Program-made: the position numbers and the translations under genes
In this document: positions 43,095 to 59,277 of the stretch, piece after piece
Position numbering within the stretch: position 1 is the first letter of the stretch
How the letters are laid out: each line of letters begins with the position of its first letter
DNA from: a virus
Reading direction: 5' to 3' (one strand)
Virus genome (UHGV): UHGV-0289908
Length of the DNA: 64,000 nucleotides
The notes under the pieces: model-generated
Seen by the model: only the letters and a program-made list of their open reading frames with translations
What the model was told of the DNA's origin: nothing
The model's database searches: none

Positions 43095-43969
43095 TTAAAA
43101 TCACTCCTCTTAAAATCAAAGTCTCAAAACCATCTACCTTAAAGCAGATAAACAGTTTTGAGACTAGGAAGTCTCTATTGTGCAACACCTTGAGCTTCTT
43201 CTACCCTTAAGGCATTGTCTTATTGGTTTGGACAATCAAGCCCATTTCATGTATACTTCCAAGAAATCAATCTTGAAAGGCTAGTTGACGTTGCGTCTTC
43301 CGTTGAGCTTTATTTATTTTACCATTGTCACGCTCTATGACAACAAAGTGTGACTTGTTCCACTATTCTTTATTTTAAGCTAGTCTTAATGGCATAGACT
43401 AGAATCATTATAGGAAACAATGGGTAGTAACACAAACTTAATCGCCCTACCACCCATCCAAAACACTAGGTTTTATAGTTTACAATGGCTTCAACTTTTA
43501 ATTTGTTCCGACACTAGATAAATGTGAGTTGACAACACAATCGGGATTCTTCCCTCGCCAACATGGAGAACTTGTTCCATTAAGACTATTTCAAGTGTCA
43601 CACAATTACAACATAGCCCTCTGTGAGTAAGCACAAGTAGTGTGGTTATTGTAACTTAACGTGCCTGTGGATAATGACCTAGGACGGCTTGACAGTGGTT
43701 GCGACCCTCGTCTGACAAGTCTTACACTCCCTATGTCCAATAAACAACTACGCTAGCTTAATCGCCCGTAGGTTCTGCGTGTACAGTTAGAACACCTCAC
43801 GACTACAGTAGTTATATTTTCTGTCGCACTCTGCAAGCGACTGTCTAGCCCATATGTCTAGCATTAATGATGACAATAAGACTATGGATTGTCGCTATAC
43901 ACGTAGGTCATCACCCCTACGTATGCTCCCCTCTAGCCAAAAGCATGGTGGTCTAATGACCATGTTAAT

Positions 43970-44046
43970 TGGGGTTTCCTGTTGGATTCGAACCAACGAT
44001 AGCTCGGTTATGAGCCGAGAGCTTTGACCGACTAAGCTAAGGAAAC
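43970..44046 (-). tRNA. tRNA-Met (anticodon CAT; could be an initiator, elongator or lysidine-Ile type), CCA encoded
   Basis: Hand-folded reverse complement: acceptor GTTTCCT/AGGAAAC, D stem GCTT/AAGC, anticodon stem CTCGG/CCGAG with loop CTCATAA, T arm GTTGG-TTCGAAT-CCAAC, then C-CCA. Confidence 0.75.
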
Positions 44047-45098: not shown

Positions 45099-45172
45099 TG
45101 GTGCTCCTACTCAGAATTGAACTGAGATTTCATCATTACCATTGATGTGTTCTGCCATTGAACTATAAGAGC
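45099..45172 (-). tRNA. tRNA-Thr (anticodon GGT), CCA encoded
   Basis: Reverse complement: acceptor GCTCTTA/TAGGAGC, D stem GTTC/GAAC, anticodon stem CATCA/TGATG with loop ATGGTAA, T arm CTCAG-TTCAATT-CTGAG, then A-CCA. Confidence 0.7.
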
Positions 45173-45218: not shown

Positions 45219-45310
45219 TGGCGGACAGGGTGGAATTCGAATCCACGCACGACTAAAAGCCGTCTAATGCCTTAGCAGGGCACCCTCTTAAGCCACTTGA
45301 GTACCTATCC
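45219..45310 (-). tRNA. tRNA-Ser (anticodon GCT), class II with a long variable arm, CCA encoded
   Basis: Reverse complement: acceptor GGATAGG/CCTGTCC (one G-U pair), anticodon stem GTGCC/GGCAT with loop CTGCTAA, ~20-nt variable arm, T arm GTGGA-TTCGAAT-TCCAC, then G-CCA. Confidence 0.65.
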
Positions 45311-48067: not shown

Positions 48068-50821
48068 CTACTCTTCCTCCTTGAAATGCTTTGACCGTTT
48101 TGTGTGCATAGTAAATGTCATTCCTTTAAATTCAAATTCCCCTGTTGCTGACTGAATTGGATATGAGATTTGCCCTTGGTTTCTTTTCAGTAAGTTTTTA
48201 ATAATCTGTTCTCCGCACACATTCCATACGACATATTTTGACTTGTTTGAAGAATAACAAATATCAATCATAATATTGCATAAAGTTTCCTCATTGGTGC
48301 ATACTACAAGCAGGTCATTTTTAAATCTCTCTGTTAAGCGATTTTCAATGTCTGCTCGTTCATTTGAGGACATCTTCTGTTTAACCGATGTCTGATAGAA
48401 CTTCTTAAGGTCGTCAATGTACTGCTCGTACAATGCAGCAACCTTCTTAGCCATACTACGTTTGTATTCAACATTAGGCGATTTCAGAATTTCTTTGTCG
48501 AACTCTGTCTTGCGTGTGTCGAGCTTGACTTGCTGAAACACCTCTTCAACGTGCCAACAGATTTTGTTCATCAGACAAGCTGTCTCGTCTATAGGAAGTT
48601 GCTTTTTGAAGAAGTGAAGAGATTTTTCTTCCTCTTCTGTTCTGTCTGTTGACGCAATGATTTCGTCCATTGACTTCTTGAACTTGCGTCGGCAACGAAT
48701 GTTCTCACTCTTCACATAATCCATGTAATCCTTGCGTAGCTTTGGATAGATGTAAGTGAAGAAATATGGTTTTTTATCTGCCACTAATTGACGATTAAAC
48801 TCTTTAAAAGCGACTACCTCTTCCGAGTCTGTGTCCGAAGGCATTAAAGGTTGATAGCTTATCCATGACTTAGGAATCCCACCAGAGGTTTCAATCCCTT
48901 TTGCTACGTCAATACTTTCTTGACTGTGTAGAATGGAAGACATAATTCGATAATCCAACTCTTCCCATTCTGGAGTCCCAAAGTCAAATCTCGCTTGAAT
49001 ACTTTGAATACATGTTGCCTTGTTTGTAATAACTCCAACATTCTCTGTCTTGCTTGCGAGCAATAACTTGTCAGAACGAATGTAGTCTTCTTCTGAACAC
49101 ATTTGCTTTTGAGCACTCTTTTGAAGGCAAATAACTGGCAAGGTGTCTCTTATCCCTTTCATAATGTATTCATTGTTTGTAATGAAAACGGTATCACCAT
49201 CACAGTCCATCCCCGATAGTCTAGGACATGTTGCGTCATAGGCATTTAGAACGTACAGCTCCCCAATGTGCTGATACCATTTTGCCATCTCTTCTGTGCA
49301 AACAATTTCAGCCTTACCAATGTTGTTATGAGAGACCATAGGTGCTCGGAACATCCCAACCTCTGACACTCCTTTGTCCACCCAGAATTTAGAATAAAAT
49401 TGTCCAGATTTTAATAACCCTTTCACTTCCATTCCAAACATGTTCTCTGCCAAACATATAGGGTCAATAGTTACCGTTTGGTAATTTCCTTGTACTTTGA
49501 TTTTCCCAATCTTGGTTTCGTCAATTCGTTTCTTTATCATGTTGTTGATAGATGTTCTAACATAAGGGTCGTTGATTAACTCTGGCTCAATCATAAGAGC
49601 ACTAGCGTAATCATATGTATTGATATCTGTATTTTCAGACATCCCAATTCCTTTTAAGTATGCTAAAGATTTTCTAGGGTCTAGCCCTTTTACCTCAATT
49701 ATCTCATCTATCGTCGGTTGAATAAGAGCATATATCTCTTCATCTGTTAAATCTAAAGACTGAATGAACTGATAGTTGGTATCTCGAACCTCGTCCAATA
49801 CCTTTGGAGTTTGCTTTGTGACACTAAATGTGTATTTGTTTTCTACACAACATCTATGATAGTGCTCCCATGAATCATAACTGTCCCACAACTTGAGCAT
49901 TGAGGTTGTGATTACTAGGTCAACATCATCAACATTCCACTCTTTATCCCAAACATCTACAATGACCTCTTTGTTCGCTTTCTCTTTTGCAAACATCTTA
50001 AAGTCGAACACTAGGGCTACTCCTTTTAAGAAAGAATTCCTAATAATAAAACCGCTCGGAGTGTAATCTAGGTGCAGGTCTTTAGCCCAAACCTTCGCAA
50101 ATTCGGGAGAGATAAAACCAGAGCCGTCGCTCGCATTTAGATTCATTTCATAATCTTCAATAACTCGCTTGTGTGGTCGTCCATCTGTTACTTCTCCTAA
50201 TTCGATAACGCTTGTTTTGAAATTCGTTTCCACATCGTGTACAATACAAACGTTAGGGGTGTCGGTTACTGGGTTACTAGCACTCATTGTTAAGCTACGA
50301 TAGGCACTTAATTTTGCAGGAACAAATTCTTTGTCATTACGACCATTGTCAATGCGTCTTTGTAATTCGTCTAAAATGGTTTCGTCCGCATAGAACACTT
50401 CTCCCTTTTTAATTGAAGCAGGAGTGGATAGGAAACGTTTGTATCGTGTTCCATTTATCACAAATCCTCGGTTAATTAAATCATAGTGTTTTGATTTATC
50501 AATCTTGACACACACAAGATACTTCAAGAACAATATTTTGTCCAACTCTTGTTTCAGCGAAACGTATCTTTTACTATTGGCTTTATTATGCCCTTCCTGT
50601 GTTAAGTGAAAAATCTCTCTTTTGAGTTGTTGAACACGCTCTTCTTCATATCCCGTCTTGGCAATGTCGTCAATACTTCTAATAACATACGAAGAAGCAA
50701 GTCCAACAATCCACCCTTCCTCTAATAGTTCGTCCATTTCAAGTTTTAAAGACATGTTAGAGTCAACAATCTCAGTGCTTGGAATTTTTATAATTTTTCT
50801 TATTGAATATAGGTTGCTCAC
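48068..50821 (-). CDS. Single-chain two-barrel (YonO/QDE-1-like) RNA polymerase homologue (917 aa)
   Basis: Beta-prime-type DPBB signature: FRAPMVSH at residues 491-498, then 40 residues later MDCDGD (DxDGD) at 538-543, compared with NRAPTLHR...NADFDGD of multisubunit beta-prime. An upstream beta-type barrel candidate RNSFLKGV (residues 261-268) compares with RHGNKGV. Confidence 0.6.
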   Translation of the reverse strand: MSNLYSIRKIIKIPSTEIVDSNMSLKLEMDELLEEGWIVGLASSYVIRSIDDIAKTGYEEERVQQLKREIFHLTQEGHNKANSKRYVSLKQELDKILFLKYLVCVKIDKSKHYDLINRGFVINGTRYKRFLSTPASIKKGEVFYADETILDELQRRIDNGRNDKEFVPAKLSAYRSLTMSASNPVTDTPNVCIVHDVETNFKTSVIELGEVTDGRPHKRVIEDYEMNLNASDGSGFISPEFAKVWAKDLHLDYTPSGFIIRNSFLKGVALVFDFKMFAKEKANKEVIVDVWDKEWNVDDVDLVITTSMLKLWDSYDSWEHYHRCCVENKYTFSVTKQTPKVLDEVRDTNYQFIQSLDLTDEEIYALIQPTIDEIIEVKGLDPRKSLAYLKGIGMSENTDINTYDYASALMIEPELINDPYVRTSINNMIKKRIDETKIGKIKVQGNYQTVTIDPICLAENMFGMEVKGLLKSGQFYSKFWVDKGVSEVGMFRAPMVSHNNIGKAEIVCTEEMAKWYQHIGELYVLNAYDATCPRLSGMDCDGDTVFITNNEYIMKGIRDTLPVICLQKSAQKQMCSEEDYIRSDKLLLASKTENVGVITNKATCIQSIQARFDFGTPEWEELDYRIMSSILHSQESIDVAKGIETSGGIPKSWISYQPLMPSDTDSEEVVAFKEFNRQLVADKKPYFFTYIYPKLRKDYMDYVKSENIRCRRKFKKSMDEIIASTDRTEEEEKSLHFFKKQLPIDETACLMNKICWHVEEVFQQVKLDTRKTEFDKEILKSPNVEYKRSMAKKVAALYEQYIDDLKKFYQTSVKQKMSSNERADIENRLTERFKNDLLVVCTNEETLCNIMIDICYSSNKSKYVVWNVCGEQIIKNLLKRNQGQISYPIQSATGEFEFKGMTFTMHTKRSKHFKEEE

Positions 50822-51645
50822 TATTTTTTCATCTCCTTTTTCACTCTCTCTTGTACTCCATTTGCCTTTTGATAATACCGCTGTGCCTGTTCTTTGAATT
50901 TGGAAGGAGATTGCTTTTTACGAGAATGAGGTTGACGCTTCTCAAGAAGTCTCATGCAATAACTCGACACATCTTCAATCTCGTTGTTAACAAACTCTTT
51001 TTTCAATGACTCTGCACGGTCGCTTATCAAAGCATTTAAGCATGAACACCATTCGGTGGCGAAGAGCTGTCCTTGATTAAGGATTAAGATACGCTCACTT
51101 ACGTGTTCAACGATTCTTTTGAGCTCTGCTTTTGCAGTACTTGGAATCAAAGGGTCAATCTGTGTTATCATGGTTTTAATCTCCTTATGTCCTAATTGTT
51201 CCTTGTTCGATTCCTCAATCATTCGTTTTATTTCACACAGTCCTATAAACAACTGTAATTGTCGTCGTATGTCTTTTTCGATTTGATTTTGGGTTCTTCG
51301 CTCTTCTGAAACTGAATGGTTGTTTCCTCCAAGTTGAACATTATAGCCCTTGTTGTTGTTGGTTGAGTCGTAATACTCTATCCAGAATTTTTCCTTTTCG
51401 TTTAATTCCGCAACTGTTAGTCCACGGTCAATTATTTCAACAATGAAGTTTTCCGCTCCGTATTTTCTAATGGAGTTTGCTAGGTATAGGTTTACTTTTG
51501 GAGAATTTGCGATTCTCTCCACTCCCACTCCTTTCCCACAATATCTTTTATTGAAGGTCTTTTGGGTTTGTCCTATGTACACTTTTCCGTTTACTTGATT
51601 TGTAACCTTGTATATAATCATGGTTTCCGTTTCAAGTGCTTTCAT
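50821..51645 (-). CDS. GIY-YIG homing endonuclease (about 274 aa from the corrected start)
   Basis: Track ORF 50821..51714. The likely start is the ATG at 51645, after AAGGAG. Motif MIIYKVTNQVNGKVYIGQT...NKRY...YGAENFIVEII...N matches the GIY-YIG catalytic core. The C-terminal half is helical (a likely DNA-binding module). Confidence 0.7.
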   Translation of the reverse strand: MKALETETMIIYKVTNQVNGKVYIGQTQKTFNKRYCGKGVGVERIANSPKVNLYLANSIRKYGAENFIVEIIDRGLTVAELNEKEKFWIEYYDSTNNNKGYNVQLGGNNHSVSEERRTQNQIEKDIRRQLQLFIGLCEIKRMIEESNKEQLGHKEIKTMITQIDPLIPSTAKAELKRIVEHVSERILILNQGQLFATEWCSCLNALISDRAESLKKEFVNNEIEDVSSYCMRLLEKRQPHSRKKQSPSKFKEQAQRYYQKANGVQERVKKEMKK

Positions 51646-51662
51646 CTCTCTACTCCTTTGTC

Positions 51663-51917
51663 TTATCCAATAAAAATAATTTTCACTTCTTCTCCTGTAA
51701 TACGACAGTAACAATCTGCTACTCGACCCGAATCACGGATGAAATCAACAATCGACTCTGTTAATTCTTCAACGTATTCAATCTTGTCTTTTTTTTCGTC
51801 CCCAAATCCTAAGAAGCGGTTCGGGGTAAAATACATACAACCATACCCCACTCTCGTTTGTACCTTGAACTCTTTTCCTACCATGGACGCTAAAACCATA
51901 CTGTCTAGCTTAGTCAT
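51663..51917 (-). CDS. Hypothetical protein (84 aa)
   Basis: ORF from the track. Confidence 0.4.
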   Translation of the reverse strand: MTKLDSMVLASMVGKEFKVQTRVGYGCMYFTPNRFLGFGDEKKDKIEYVEELTESIVDFIRDSGRVADCYCRITGEEVKIIFIG

Positions 51918-54870: not shown

Positions 54871-55299
54871 CAAGGTATAGGAAATGGGCTATTTTGACGG
54901 TATTTGGTCAAAATATAGCGACAAGAGGTAAAAAAGTGACCAAAATTGAGTCTGAAACAACGGATTTATCGGGATTTTGTATGAATTGCCCTATATAAAG
55001 GTTGAGATTTGAGGATGATTGTTCCATTTAGAAGGGCTGATTTTGGGGTAAATTAATGGAAATCTCAACCGTTTTAGGATAGTCTGTGGAGCTCCTTATG
55101 CTCTGAGTGGCATGAGAGACTATAGTCCGTAGTTGTCTTTGGACTATTCGGGAGTTTCTTGAGAATAGGTAGAAATACCAGTGGGAGACGAGGAAGTTCT
55201 GGAGATGGATATTCTCTTGAGTTCTTCGGTAGAGACTCGATATCTTTTGTGATTAAAATGGGCAAAAGTATTGATGGCAGTAGTGTTTGGAGGTCTTTT

Positions 55300-55440
55300 G
55301 CAGGGGTTAGAGGGAGCTAGAGGGAGAGGTGAATCTGGAGCGGGAGAGCTGAATGATGTGAGTGGGAAGAGCTTGAGAGGGAGAGGTTTGAGGGGGAAGT
55401 GGTGTGGAAGAGGTGTGGAATGAGCCGTGTGGGAATGGAA
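55300..55440 (+). repeat. Polypurine (GA-rich) tract with multiple G3-5 runs
   Basis: About 140 bp that are roughly 80% purine on the plus strand (gagggagctagagggagaggtgaatctggagcgggagag...gagggggaagtgg). Confidence 0.6.
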
Positions 55441-55704
55441 CAGATACCCGAGTCTGTTCGCATTTTTCGACCTTTTTCGACGTAAACCGACCCCCCTGTA
55501 AGCGTTTTCCAATGACCTATAATGTAGCTTATGAGTCCCCCAATGTGTTCAAATTGTGTCTTTTTTCTGGTTCGACAGGATTCGACATTTTCCCCAATTA
55601 TTCGACATCACTATAAAAGGTATAGCCCAAACTATACCTTTTAGGTAAAACGTTATAACCTTTTTATCGTTCAACCTGTCTATACATGTTGATGAAACAC
55701 ACAA

Positions 55705-55960
55705 ATACTAAACTTTTCCCTTACTATCACTAAACACGACCCACGACCCCCAAAAAGTTTACCTATATTAAACAAAAAGTTTACCCACACTAAACCACAC
55801 AAATATTAAACTTTAGGTTTAAAAATATTAAACCACAAAATTACTAAACAAAAAGTTTAAAATCACTAAACACCCTTATGTTTAGTCACACTAAACACAA
55901 GTTTAAAAATACTAAACATGACCTAGTTTATAAATACTAAACCAATGTTTATAAATACTA
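55705..55960. repeat. ACTAAAC iteron array (about 10 copies) interleaved with AAGTTTA repeats
   Basis: aaatACTAAACtttt, tcACTAAACacg, cacACTAAACcac, attACTAAACaaaa, tcACTAAACaccc, gtttagtcacACTAAACac, aatACTAAACatg, aatACTAAACcaatg, aatACTAAACtcaag. Confidence 0.6.
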
Positions 55961-55968
55961 AACTCAAG

Positions 55969-56012
55969 TTATCCACAAGCTACCCACTTATCCACAACCA
56001 ACCTGTGGATAA
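55969..56012. promoter_or_regulatory. Cluster of three DnaA boxes (TTATCCACA, TTATCCACA, and TGTGGATAA inverted); candidate replication origin
   Basis: Exact 9-mers at 55969-55977, 55988-55996 and 56004-56012, directly following the iteron array and preceding an AT-rich stretch. Confidence 0.6.
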
Positions 56013-56379
56013 CTACAAGCACAAACGCCGATAAAAGTCAAGTAAAAACTTAATTAAATTTTTCACAATGAAACCGTTTTCCTGCAATGCACACTTTTGC
56101 CTATTTGTCAACCCCCTTAAATTACCCCATGTAACCGCTTTATTTCAGCTTTTAAGGGGGGTCGGGTATAATAACCCTCAGAGCGTCTTAAAACGAAAAA
56201 CAGGAATTTCGACACGATTCGACACGCTAAAACGCTTACAATTTTTCTCATGTTGAAATTTGTCGAATTTTGTCACCGACCTTACTTCGTGAAATACTTC
56301 ACAAATCGAACGTGTTCGGTTATGTCCAACTTGTGTTCGAGTTTGTGAAATAATTAATAATGACACACCCGACCCTGTG

Positions 56380-56423
56380 GTATACGTGCGTGCGTGCGTG
56401 CGTACACGTGCGTACACGTATGT
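56380..56423. repeat. Perfect 44-bp alternating purine-pyrimidine tract ((CG/TG)n), Z-DNA-prone
   Basis: gtatacgtgcgtgcgtgcgtgcgtacacgtgcgtacacgtatgt, with strict R-Y alternation checked base by base. Confidence 0.6.
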
Positions 56424-56487
56424 CCATATATAGACACGACCTCAAAAGTTTGTGAAATATTTAATTTAAAAGAACACAAAATGAACA

Positions 56488-56516
56488 CAACTTCACCCCG
56501 TGACCGTGGTAATATA
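56488..56516 (+). promoter_or_regulatory. Rightward promoter P0 (extended -10 TGgTAATAT, weak -35), followed by the conserved ATAAGTGTGCTnAGG start region
   Basis: -10 at 56510-56515. The transcript begins with a GUGCUGAGGGGCAC hairpin. Confidence 0.4.
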
Positions 56517-56604
56517 TAAGTGTGCTGAGGGGCACGGGTTGAGCCCCGACACAATTCGACAAATTATGTCGAAAATAAAAAATTAAATTTTTTTCGAAAA
56601 ACTG

Positions 56605-56633
56605 TTGACGGTAAAATCAACATGTGATAATAT
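56605..56633 (+). promoter_or_regulatory. Rightward promoter PA: TTGACG, 17 nt, TGaTAATAT. The -35 lies inside the palindrome TGTTGAC-N7-TCAACA.
   Basis: -35 at 56605-56610, -10 at 56628-56633, extended TG at 56625-56626. Confidence 0.6.
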
Positions 56634-56639
56634 ATAAGT

Positions 56640-56860
56640 GTGCTAAGGCACAGCATTCAGAATAGGCGTAGAAATTAAAGCCCGCATGTACTTTACGGGA
56701 AACACAAGACGTAAAGGTTGAAGTTAAAAACTCATAGCTAGGCTATGGCACTGGGGAATAATCGCCCCAGGTGAACTGATAGGCTGATAAGTTGGTTCAG
56801 ATTGACGTTCTTTAGTTCGGGGGTTGAAATTCTGAAAAACGAAAAAAATTTTTTAAAAAA
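56640..56860 (+). ncRNA. Candidate structured non-coding transcript downstream of PA (GC-enriched, many local hairpins)
   Basis: No ORF. Hairpins GCCCGCATGTACTTTACGGGAAAC, CATAGCTAGGCTATGG, CTGGGGAATAATCGCCCCAGG and GTTCGGGGGTTGAAATTCTGAA, ending in an A/T run before the next promoter. Confidence 0.3.
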
Positions 56861-56864
56861 ACTG

Positions 56865-56893
56865 TTGACTTCAAAATCAACAGGTGATATACT
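56865..56893 (+). promoter_or_regulatory. Rightward promoter PB: TTGACT, 17 nt, TGaTATACT. The -35 lies in the palindrome TGTTGACttcaaaaTCAACA.
   Basis: -35 at 56865-56870, -10 at 56888-56893. Confidence 0.55.
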
Positions 56894-57263
56894 TGATTTG
56901 TGTTGGTGAGTGTCCTAAGCAACTCGGAGGTCTAGGTGAAACCCCTCATTTGGGATATAGTGAATCGCACAGGGTCATTTCCCCGCGTGGTCACGGTTCT
57001 TTGAAAACATTATACAAAATCATAACGGGATAACCCGCAAGTCGCACGGGATAAGTAGCGAGACCCTAACATTAGAGTCGGATGGGCGAAAAAAGAGGGG
57101 CGATAATAGAGAGTAGTATAGCATAGTGGATTGAGTGATTGAACAGGTGCTAAGGCGGGCGAACGTTTGAAGCCGTTAGAGACTACCCGACCGCACACGT
57201 CACGAATACGGCAACATCCACAGGGACGACCAAAAAATCAAAAATCAAAAAGGACGTGATAAT

Positions 57264-58019
57264 ATGGAAACAATCAAATTTACTCGTAAAAAACAATTCT
57301 TAACATTTTTAAATGAAACGGTATCTACAAAATGTGACGAAATTCGACATCTAGAGTCTATTGTAGACAAAAAGTTTATTGAAACGGTTGGTTACCGATT
57401 AGGAATTGAGTACACTGAACAATACTCTTATGAGGCGATTTTCGCTGGATATGAGGGAGAAAAAGCAATCATCAATAATATCCAACGTTCTACCTTATGG
57501 GATATGTCATATCATGCCAATGGTTTAATGGCAAAAATGAATGAACAAATTGAATACTTGCAATTTGCTATTGAACACGGTAAAAAATTCGCAACTTATG
57601 GCGATTGTATTAAAGCATGGCATGAATTTAAAGATAACGGGACAATTCCGACAGAAATCGACACGGAAAAAGTCGAAAAAGCGGAATCATTTGATGACAA
57701 AACTTGTAAAAATCAAGTAGAATTTTTAAATGTGGTGCAAAAAGATTTACAAAACCACTCAAATCGACAAGCACGAAAAAAGCAACTTAACGAAGAAACG
57801 ATAAAAAACGACACGGAAAATGTGGAAAATGTAGAAAAAACAGAAGAAACAACACCATGTAAAAATTGTAAAACATGTGCAAATTGTTTCCACTGTGAGT
57901 TAGATGGGGAATATGGAGAATGTAAAAATAGGTCGTGCATAGTGAGGAGAAAAGATAGCTGTTCACTGTTCATGTATAAACTTGAGTCAAGCTCCCCAAC
58001 GGGTCACACTAAAACGTAA
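57264..58019 (+). CDS. Early protein (251 aa) with a C-terminal Cys-rich cluster (9 Cys in 35 aa)
   Basis: ORF from the track. The roughly 370-nt GC-rich leader runs from PB. Confidence 0.55.
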   Translation: METIKFTRKKQFLTFLNETVSTKCDEIRHLESIVDKKFIETVGYRLGIEYTEQYSYEAIFAGYEGEKAIINNIQRSTLWDMSYHANGLMAKMNEQIEYLQFAIEHGKKFATYGDCIKAWHEFKDNGTIPTEIDTEKVEKAESFDDKTCKNQVEFLNVVQKDLQNHSNRQARKKQLNEETIKNDTENVENVEKTEETTPCKNCKTCANCFHCELDGEYGECKNRSCIVRRKDSCSLFMYKLESSSPTGHTKT

Positions 58020-58351: not shown

Positions 58352-58468
58352 AAAATAGTCGTGTGGGCGACTTAAAAAAGGCACTTAAGCCCACAGCGTC
58401 CACCCGTTGCGGGTGGGGTGTGCACTTGAAAAAAGTGTGTAAAATATGAATTTTATGGAGGTATTACA

Positions 58469-58690: not shown

Positions 58691-58751
58691 TAGTAACACA
58701 AGACACAAAAAAATTTGTGTCCTGTATAGTGCTAATTAATAGCATGAAAAA
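58688..58751 (+). repeat. Repeated intergenic element, copy 1 (TAGTAGTAAC..GACACAAAAAAATTTGTGTC..TGCTAATTAATAGCA..GAAAAA)
   Basis: Near-identical to copy 2 at 59275-59337. Contains two hairpins. Confidence 0.6.
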
Positions 58752-58773
58752 TAAAAAATTGGAGGAAATTAAA

Positions 58774-59277
58774 ATGTTTACTATGGAAATTATCAACTAC
58801 ACAACTGATGAGGTTTATTATTTTGAGCGTTGGAGTGAAATCGAAGGAAAATTAGAGGAATTACAAGCTACTCACCCAACCCACGAAATTGGAGTATCAC
58901 ACTTTACAATATTTGGGGTGGAAATTCCATATACTAAGGAAAATGTAGAATTTATCAACTCACACGACGGCGAAGAAATTGAAGCGGTTATTACATACTA
59001 TACCAACGAATACGGTGTAGTCCCTATGGTAGAATTGCAAGACGTGGCGGACTATATGGAAAATAGAGCATGTGTGACCTATTATTTAGGGGACGACGAA
59101 ATCGAAGCGTTCGAAAATTATTGTGATGAGTTGGGAATGTTTAAGGATGTACCCGAACACGTGACACGATATATTGACTATGAAAAAATGTTGCGTGACT
59201 ATAAATTTGACGGTATGGGGGTTTACCGCTTATCATATGACCACCCGACACAATATCGCTATATGTTCTGTAATTAG
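58774..59277 (+). CDS. Hypothetical early protein (167 aa)
   Basis: ATG at 58774 after TTGGAGGAAATTAAAATG, which is identical to the RBS context of the 58085 gene. The track ORF is N-terminally extended. Confidence 0.55.
   Translation: MFTMEIINYTTDEVYYFERWSEIEGKLEELQATHPTHEIGVSHFTIFGVEIPYTKENVEFINSHDGEEIEAVITYYTNEYGVVPMVELQDVADYMENRACVTYYLGDDEIEAFENYCDELGMFKDVPEHVTRYIDYEKMLRDYKFDGMGVYRLSYDHPTQYRYMFCN

Follow-up and report, generated by a model that had tools for sequence, protein, structure and literature searches.

A Z-DNA-prone alternating tract of variable length is retained in the control region of an uncultured gut siphovirus lineage

A perfectly alternating purine-pyrimidine tract lies in the non-coding control region of a phage that belongs to an uncultured lineage of large gut siphoviruses. 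The tract is a real, non-random and evolutionarily retained element, for whose function we make a proposal below. Strong Z-propensity at this one regulatory site is kept in the lineage, even though the length and sequence of the tract change constantly. Throughout, the window denotes the whole stretch of 64 kb that was analysed.

Sequence and rarity of the tract

The tract reads GTATACGTGCGTGCGTGCGTGCGTACACGTGCGTACACGTATGT. A check of the exact sequence confirmed what an earlier note on this DNA had described: purine and pyrimidine alternate at 43 of 43 steps, unbroken over 44 bp. Its pyrimidine-purine units are 8 CG, 6 TG, 5 TA and 2 CA, and its GC content is 57% vs 38% in the window (the earlier note put the phage at about 35%). 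With 47.3% of all steps in the window alternating, 3.6e-10 runs of at least 44 bp are expected by chance and the runner-up run is 15 bp long, which bears out the view that such a tract is improbable by chance. TRF resolved it as a compound microsatellite made of (CGTG)4.8 and (CGTGCGTACA)2.3, the sole repeat of period ≤6 found in the 64 kb (score ≥36).

Table 1. Coordinates of the tract, of the surrounding control region and of other features in the window.
Feature	Position	Strand	Remarks
Alternating purine-pyrimidine tract	56380-56423		44 bp; Z-DNA-prone, no CGCG/GCGC
Tetranucleotide core (GTGC)n, i.e. (CGTG)4.8	56385-56403		TRF; copy number varies among close relatives
10-bp repeat (CGTGCGTACA)2.3	56397-56419		TRF; right half of tract
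Left border ATGACACNCCCGNCCCTGTG	56360-56379		Kept in clades A and B; sequence further left diverges
Right border CCATATA	56424-56430		Kept in clades A and B
Bracketing direct repeat AGTTTGTGAAATAWTTAAT, left copy	56340-56358	+
Bracketing direct repeat AGTTTGTGAAATAWTTAAT, right copy	56447-56465	+
Conserved block with TTCGACA motifs	56207-56274		Left edge of the tract-holding interval in all lineages
Three perfect DnaA boxes TTATCCACA	55969-56012	two +, one -
ACTAAAC-containing repeats	55690-55970		Dense, 21-46 bp each; directly left of the DnaA boxes
Easiest-melting AT-rich segment of the control region	55801-55863		Inside the ACTAAAC repeats; melting model
First early promoter P0 (predicted), extended -10 TGgTAATAT	56507-56515	+
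Second early promoter (predicted)	56605-56633	+	TTGACG-17-TAATAT, TG extension
Third early promoter (predicted)	56865-56893	+	TTGACT-17-TATACT, TG extension
GTGCTRAGG motif	56522-56530, 56640-56648, 57147-57155	+	Potential small hairpin GUGC-loop-GCAC
Purine-rich block	55290-55430	+	G/A-dominated, GAGGGAG-like repeats; overlaps an unsupported minus-strand ORF
Conserved segment	55374-55533		Overlaps right part of the purine-rich block; 76% conserved in L006
Conserved segment	55019-55674		78% conserved in L005
First early gene	57264-58019		251 aa
Pistol ribozyme	58357-58423	+	Rfam RF02679, 60.8 bits vs gathering 34.5; between two small early ORFs
ArdA-like anti-restriction ORF	58717-59277
6A RNA match	43298-43348	-	42.5 vs gathering 41.2, just above; adjoins the tRNA cluster
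tRNAs (Met, Thr, Ser cluster)	43970-44046, 45099-45172, 45219-45310	-
917-aa ORF	48068-50821	-	No Pfam match of its own
GIY-YIG-type homing endonuclease ORF	50821-51714	-	PHROG matches; between the 917-aa and 84-aa genes

The divergent control region

Genes to the left of about 55.5 kb point leftward and those from 57264 onward point rightward, and the roughly 3 kb between them are non-coding and dense in short repeats, iterons, DnaA boxes, TTCGACA motifs and promoters. Inside this divergently transcribed interval the tract lies just behind a battery of predicted early promoters, three in tandem, rightward and near-identical in sequence; all promoters and start sites named here are predicted from consensus sequences. 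The -10 hexamer of P0, TAATAT, begins 87 bp after the tract ends, in agreement with the approximately 90 bp given before. Its extended -10 is kept in 8 of 10 aligned relatives, with the variant TGaTAAGAT in L013 and L046, and is followed by the conserved sequence GTGCTGAGGGGCAC. On the other side, the last DnaA box ends 368 bp to the left (about 350 bp had been noted), the link between the two being one of proximity.

Several repeated motifs surround the tract. TTCGACA occurs 9 times in 55571-57349 and 20 times in the whole window vs 8.9 expected, often in pairs or inverted pairs, and is probably an operator of some regulator. The repeat AGTTTGTGAAATAWTTAAT, which brackets the tract, is likewise probably a regulator site. 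The conserved block at 56207-56274 is 82% identical to the corresponding sequence of L006 and 79% identical to that of L008. Further left, the iteron array, the DnaA boxes and the easiest-melting segment together look like an origin. The tract itself was rejected as the DNA unwinding element of such an origin: it is GC-rich, lies away from the boxes, and the easiest-melting segment is found on their other side. Inspection of the tract borders by eye on both strands yielded no convincing sigma-70 promoter, only TGgTATACG without the T at -7 and weak minus-strand candidates.

The first and the second predicted early promoter are each closely followed by the GTGCTRAGG motif, of which a third copy lies at 57147. 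Its form GTGCTGAGGGGCACGGGT is kept in 9 of 10 aligned relatives, one G being missing in L001. The motif could be a nut-like or processing signal.

Relatives of the phage and their tract alleles

Searches of INPHARED phages with megablast and blastn, using the tract region and 24 kb, gave no nucleotide match. Its portal reaches no more than 36% identity to portals of Alicyclobacillus, Brevibacillus and Bacillus Tsamsa-like phages, and exact protein matches fall on contigs of 130-155 kb from human gut metagenomes. As a handle for relatives we used the 251-aa product of the first early gene, for which BLASTP found 12 homologous protein clusters at 45-87% identity, and all relatives were obtained through exact-protein look-ups in ENA and Logan assemblies. 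No member of the family turned up in IMG/VR, which was scanned for the tract, for the flank pattern and for two proteins encoded nearby, and in JGI metagenomes and GTDB genomes the flank pattern CCNTGTGGTATACGTGCG returned chance matches to unrelated DNA.

The interval from the TTCGACA block to P0 was compared among the loci that span or touch it, which come from human and pig gut metagenomes. A GC-rich alternating tract is present at the homologous site in all 17 of them, in 13 distinct alleles (Table 2). In L005, L006, L008 and L013 BLAST established collinearity, the conserved block, the tract and the promoter block following in the same order; the other loci were placed through shared flank sequences. 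Clades A and B share the sequences that directly border the tract, while further out the sequence is replaced.

Table 2. Tract alleles in the window and in related loci.
Locus	Length	Interruptions	Remarks
Window, L002	44 bp	none
L003	40 bp	none	(GTGC)3
L004	48 bp	none	(GTGC)5
L001	48 bp	none	Two GT insertions
L017-L019	38 bp	one CCC
L044	50 bp	one CCC	(GTGC)6
L046	44 bp	one GGG
L014	48 bp	one CCC
L005	46 bp	three
L013	82 bp	four
L016	≥49 bp	two	Contig begins inside tract
L006, L007	120 bp	none	Different sequence
L008	19+6 bp only

The tract is length-polymorphic even among near-identical phages and is never absent in the loci examined. The four alleles of the window clade (40, 44, 48 and 48 bp) all alternate perfectly. 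Copy number of GTGC is 3, 4, 5 or 6, as in L003, the window, L004 and L044, or the tract has gained GT insertions as in L001. The suggestion that the site is a hotspot of length change therefore stood, close relatives differing by 4-bp units (40/44/48) and distant ones ranging from 19 to 120 bp. Variability or absence in close relatives had been named as a finding that would speak against a role; what we found is variation in length without a single loss, with a predicted Z-DNA threshold (see below) that stays stable in 11 of the 12 alleles modelled. Perfect alternation holds in the window clade and in L006 and L007, but not in one clade whose alleles have single CCC or GGG interruptions. A coding role for the tract was rejected, as alleles differ by 4 bp and the overlapping ORFs are unsupported.

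The contig L015 starts at the last bases of the tract and L016 starts inside it, these being two of three short contigs from one study. Such starts would fit breaks in assembly at a tract that varies in length within the sample or is poorly covered.

Avoidance of restriction sites

Five short palindromes are almost entirely missing from the window, a sign of strong restriction-site avoidance. GATC (about 158 expected) and GGCC (39 expected) are absent, and CCGG (43 expected), CGCG (39 expected, found at 56984) and GCGC (46 expected, found at 1383) occur once each. The related loci show the same avoidance, and the window encodes an ArdA-like anti-restriction ORF alongside it. Within the tract, CGCG and GCGC are missing vs 4.9 expected when its own pyrimidine-purine units are shuffled (P = 0.005). 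The 120-bp allele of L006 likewise contains neither vs 12 expected (P < 5e-5), so selection acted on this allele at least against restriction sites. Clade B retains a few GCGC sites per locus, mostly within the tract, in GCGCCC units. Under a ban on CGCG and GCGC, CG interleaved with TG or CA is the most Z-prone arrangement still allowed, and the (GTGC)n core fits it. The tract thus appears to be shaped by two constraints, alternation and avoidance of CGCG and GCGC.

Maintained alternation or plain slippage

The evidence that alternation itself is maintained is suggestive, not conclusive. The strongest case is the L006 allele, in which 119 of 119 steps alternate; TRF assigns it periods of 6-30 at 63-83% match, so it is not a simple repeat, and all 17 of its 17 non-G purine positions are A. 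In the flanking non-coding DNA the ratio of transitions to transversions is about 1:1, and in 130 unrelated viral (GTGC)n arrays, among the matches listed, impurities are of the transition type in 45 cases vs 27 of the transversion type. Given these two baselines, alleles free of transversions are unexpected under neutrality. The impurities of L013, with a ratio of transition-type to transversion-type changes of about 5:4, are near the neutral baseline.

In clade B each allele has 1-4 interruptions, and every interruption is a single G/C change that gives CC or GG. These are the non-alternating dinucleotides that cost Z-DNA least, at 2.4 kcal/mol (Table 1 of PMC3024258). Tract length shifts in even-sized slippage steps, and even-length indels with retained phase are an automatic outcome of slippage combined with point substitution. 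A single mutation can also be multiplied by slippage. Freund et al. 1989, as cited in a 2026 preprint on DRT3 (PMC13174585), reported that bacteria tend to delete Z-forming repeats; set against this report, the persistence of the tract suggests maintenance.

Predicted B-to-Z transition and a torsional role

Transition energies were calculated with a two-state model that takes its dinucleotide energies from Table 1 of PMC3024258 and charges 5 kcal/mol per B-Z junction. For the tract of the window the model gives a critical sigma of -0.033 in a large domain, -0.036 at 10 kb and -0.040 at 5 kb, and the predicted flip absorbs about 7 turns. This is the top Z-site predicted in the window, the next best reaching -0.044, in line with the earlier assessment of a strong Z-DNA former. 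Treated in the same way, (CG)13 flips at -0.026 and (TG)30 at -0.035. The model was applied to 12 alleles, which are all but the truncated one of L016; 11 of them have a critical sigma of -0.030 to -0.035, and the twelfth, the L008 remnant, is at -0.049. The tract is thus alternating, rich in CG and TG and longer than the minimum of about 12 bp for a Z-forming sequence, and its predicted B-Z transition falls within the physiological superhelical range. In the model the tract and the melting segment 55801-55863 compete for superhelical energy, and at N = 5 kb the tract would flip first (-0.040 vs -0.047 for melting, both two-state, with low-salt melting parameters of the SIDD type).

Unconstrained supercoiling in bacteria is usually about -0.025 at steady state. 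Because the predicted threshold of -0.033 to -0.040 is more negative than this, flipping would need local stress driven by transcription, which the arrangement of strong rightward promoters in front of the tract would provide. In the mechanism that we propose, polymerases leaving P0-P2, 87-480 bp to the right, would throw negative supercoils back onto the tract, as in the twin-domain model. At a sigma of about -0.035 to -0.04 the tract would flip to Z-DNA and absorb some 7 helical turns. The flip may then buffer torsional stress on the neighbouring promoters, and it may delay melting of the AT-rich region of iterons and DnaA boxes 400-600 bp to the left.

Taking the fixed site, the model energies, the composition and the length changes together, we tentatively favour an element that flips from B- to Z-DNA under supercoiling, a 'flipon' or torsional sink, and that slippage lets drift in length, while holding this reading to be somewhat short of probable. 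Against it, to judge from the sequences compared, a long tract is dispensable, since L008 keeps only 19+6 bp. A Pfam search of the 20 ORFs nearest the tract, in a window that covers half of the genome, found no Z-alpha or other DNA-binding domain, and the AlphaFold model of the adjacent 251-aa protein (pLDDT 55, all-helical) was too poor for a fold search. That the tract is a selected phage flipon, set between the origin-like cluster and the tandem early promoters, which senses transcription supercoiling and gates promoter output or origin melting, we consider unlikely; rapid slippage would in that case tune its threshold and capacity, and its sequence would be Z-optimised within the limits set by restriction-site avoidance. 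If this were true, no regulatory element made of Z-DNA and conserved in evolution would have been described in a bacteriophage before it. A further role proposed in the earlier note, that of a nucleosome-free-type exclusion element, is meaningless in a bacterial host.

Alternative explanations

A neutral microsatellite accounts for much of the same evidence. On this explanation (GTGC)n arose once in the non-coding interval and persists by slippage birth and death, and alternation, even lengths and Z-potential are functionless by-products of the unit. Copy number indeed differs among near-identical relatives (3, 4, 5 or 6 units, or GT insertions), tract lengths span 19-120 bp, interruptions accumulate in clade B, and the spacing from the left flank to P0 is unconserved, at 126-133 bp in the close clade. 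The unit also seems intrinsically slippage-prone, being frequent in unrelated viral contigs (at least 119 in IMG/VR), and two of three small contigs of one study break in or at the tract. What neutrality explains less readily is that no lineage examined has lost the tract from this site through the turnover of both flanks, that its borders are conserved, and that it is the sole SSR of period ≤6 in 64 kb of a compact phage genome. Nor does it predict the 120-bp allele, which is not a simple repeat and yet alternates at 119 of 119 steps with zero CGCG and GCGC. We regard a purely neutral origin as only slightly less likely than the B-to-Z element and as a strong rival to it. The conserved borders ATGACACNCCCGNCCCTGTG and CCATATA could instead belong to an array recognised by a protein, with CGTGCG/GTGCGTAC units bound by a phage or host protein such as a regulator, or a topoisomerase or gyrase with a preference for alternating sequence, or the tract could be a tunable spacer in which 4-bp changes reset the helical phase between flanking regulator sites, in the manner of a contingency locus. 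The field of repeated motifs around the tract (TTCGACA nine times, AGTTTGTGAAATAWTTAAT, and GACACNCCCGACC-like sequences on both sides) would suit either version, as would the 10-bp repeat (CGTGCGTACA)2.3 of the window allele, which spans one helical turn, and the 4-bp steps between close relatives. Against this, the 10-bp repeat is confined to the window clade and is kept in neither clade B nor clade C, and periodicities of 4, 6, 12, 16 and 30 bp are found elsewhere, which is not the pattern of an iteron or operator array. An array of 4-bp units is likewise atypical for operator geometry, clade B has no bracketing repeat to the right of the tract, and the 20 ORFs nearest the tract gave no DNA-binding domain. 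The predicted start of P0 is some 65-125 bp away from the tract, which lies upstream of it, outside the interval from -35 to -10 and in no conserved ORF. Array and spacer taken together seem improbable to us but are still a serious rival.

The flanks themselves raise the question of recombination, in which the tract would promote breaks or strand exchange and so mark a mosaic junction between a left module of iterons and DnaA boxes and a right module of promoters and genes. In L017 and L044 the tract flanks are almost identical to those of the window and the adjacent gene product is only about 45-47% identical (BLASTP). L014 combines a left and near-right flank of clade B with a clade-A-like segment upstream of P0, and similarity between clades A and B falls right after CCATATA and about 20 bp to the left of the tract. 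Z-forming repeats have moreover been reported as deletion hotspots, in work cited in PMC13174585. The genomes are too few to separate breakpoints at the tract from a general mosaicism of the regulatory region, and module exchange would leave the retention of the tract unexplained; we judge a recombination hotspot to be quite unlikely. Least likely by far is a cruciform, a hairpin or an RNA-level element, for example in a transcript from the upstream TATAAT at 56167-56172. The tract ends can pair (ATACGTG with CACGTAT), and as single-stranded DNA the alleles have a minimum free energy of -12 to -36 kcal/mol, but in 8 of 8 alleles folding was no better than in dinucleotide-preserving shuffles (z -1.9 to +1.1). 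With self-complementarity not beyond what composition gives, cruciform and hairpin were rejected. An RNA element is at odds with the lack of a U-tract after the tract and with a hypervariable length, which is incompatible with a conserved RNA structure. A known RNA family was rejected as well, the only match in Rfam 15 being mir-297 at 24.1 bits vs a gathering threshold of 90 (E = 0.63), a composition artefact.

Relation to known systems

The tract is a Z-DNA-prone alternating microsatellite beside promoters, an element of a kind already known. Much work has been done on Z-DNA-forming tracts of eukaryotic promoters and of engineered plasmids. In experiments of the Rahmouni and Wells type, E. 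coli plasmids reportedly received engineered Z-DNA inserts, (CG)n or (TG)n, on the upstream side of a promoter. Like those inserts, the phage tract is an alternating purine-pyrimidine sequence behind a promoter, active there and predicted here; under the same energy model a sigma of a few hundredths is predicted to flip it, with some 0.18 turns taken up by each bp. Unlike them, it is natural, evolutionarily retained and compound (CG, TG, TA and CA), and its Z transition is a model prediction. With promoter-proximal flipons of eukaryotes such as that of c-myc it shares a position just upstream of start sites and a proposed drive by transcription-generated negative supercoiling, whereas its bacterial or phage context lacks nucleosomes and no Z-alpha reader was found in its 20 neighbouring ORFs. 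Z-forming sequences are enriched upstream of mouse transcription start sites (PMC3024258). In our literature search we met no earlier account of a Z-prone tract that is conserved in the control region of a phage, and non-canonical structures in bacteriophages are described as largely uncharted in a 2025 perspective (PMC12607565).

The repeat unit invites two further comparisons. Tetranucleotide-repeat contingency loci of bacteria are phase-variable SSRs, and the tract resembles them in its tandem short unit of four nucleotides and in its copy-number polymorphism between very close relatives. It differs in lying outside any conserved ORF and outside the promoter spacer, ending ahead of the P0 -10, and in having no evident on/off read-out, and a classical contingency locus was rejected. 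At least 119 viral contigs of IMG/VR (L047-L165) contain the 18-mer (GTGC)4GT, in arrays of up to 566 bp that, among the matches listed, are mostly pure repeats in GC-rich contigs; a few (L047, L102 and L135) lie in AT-rich intergenic DNA near promoter-like sequences. These microsatellites share the repeat unit of the phage tract, in four or more copies. The contigs show no protein similarity to the window, however, and so come from unrelated viruses.

If functional, the tract would offer a compact natural system for testing whether B-Z transitions in bacteria read out supercoiling driven by transcription. If neutral, it would serve as a strain-level length marker for these gut phages and would be a likely cause of assembly breaks.

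Other features of the window

Beyond the control region, the window contains a Pistol ribozyme, a borderline 6A RNA match and a tRNA cluster (Table 1). At the position of the 917-aa ORF, L005 encodes a product of 541 residues with a precomputed match to PF05183 (RdRP), which suggests that the 917-aa ORF may encode a YonO-like single-subunit RNA polymerase. The adjacent homing endonuclease ORF is a presence/absence polymorphism: its flanking genes in the window have counterparts only 18 bp apart in L001, L003, L004 and L005, which lack the ORF at this position.
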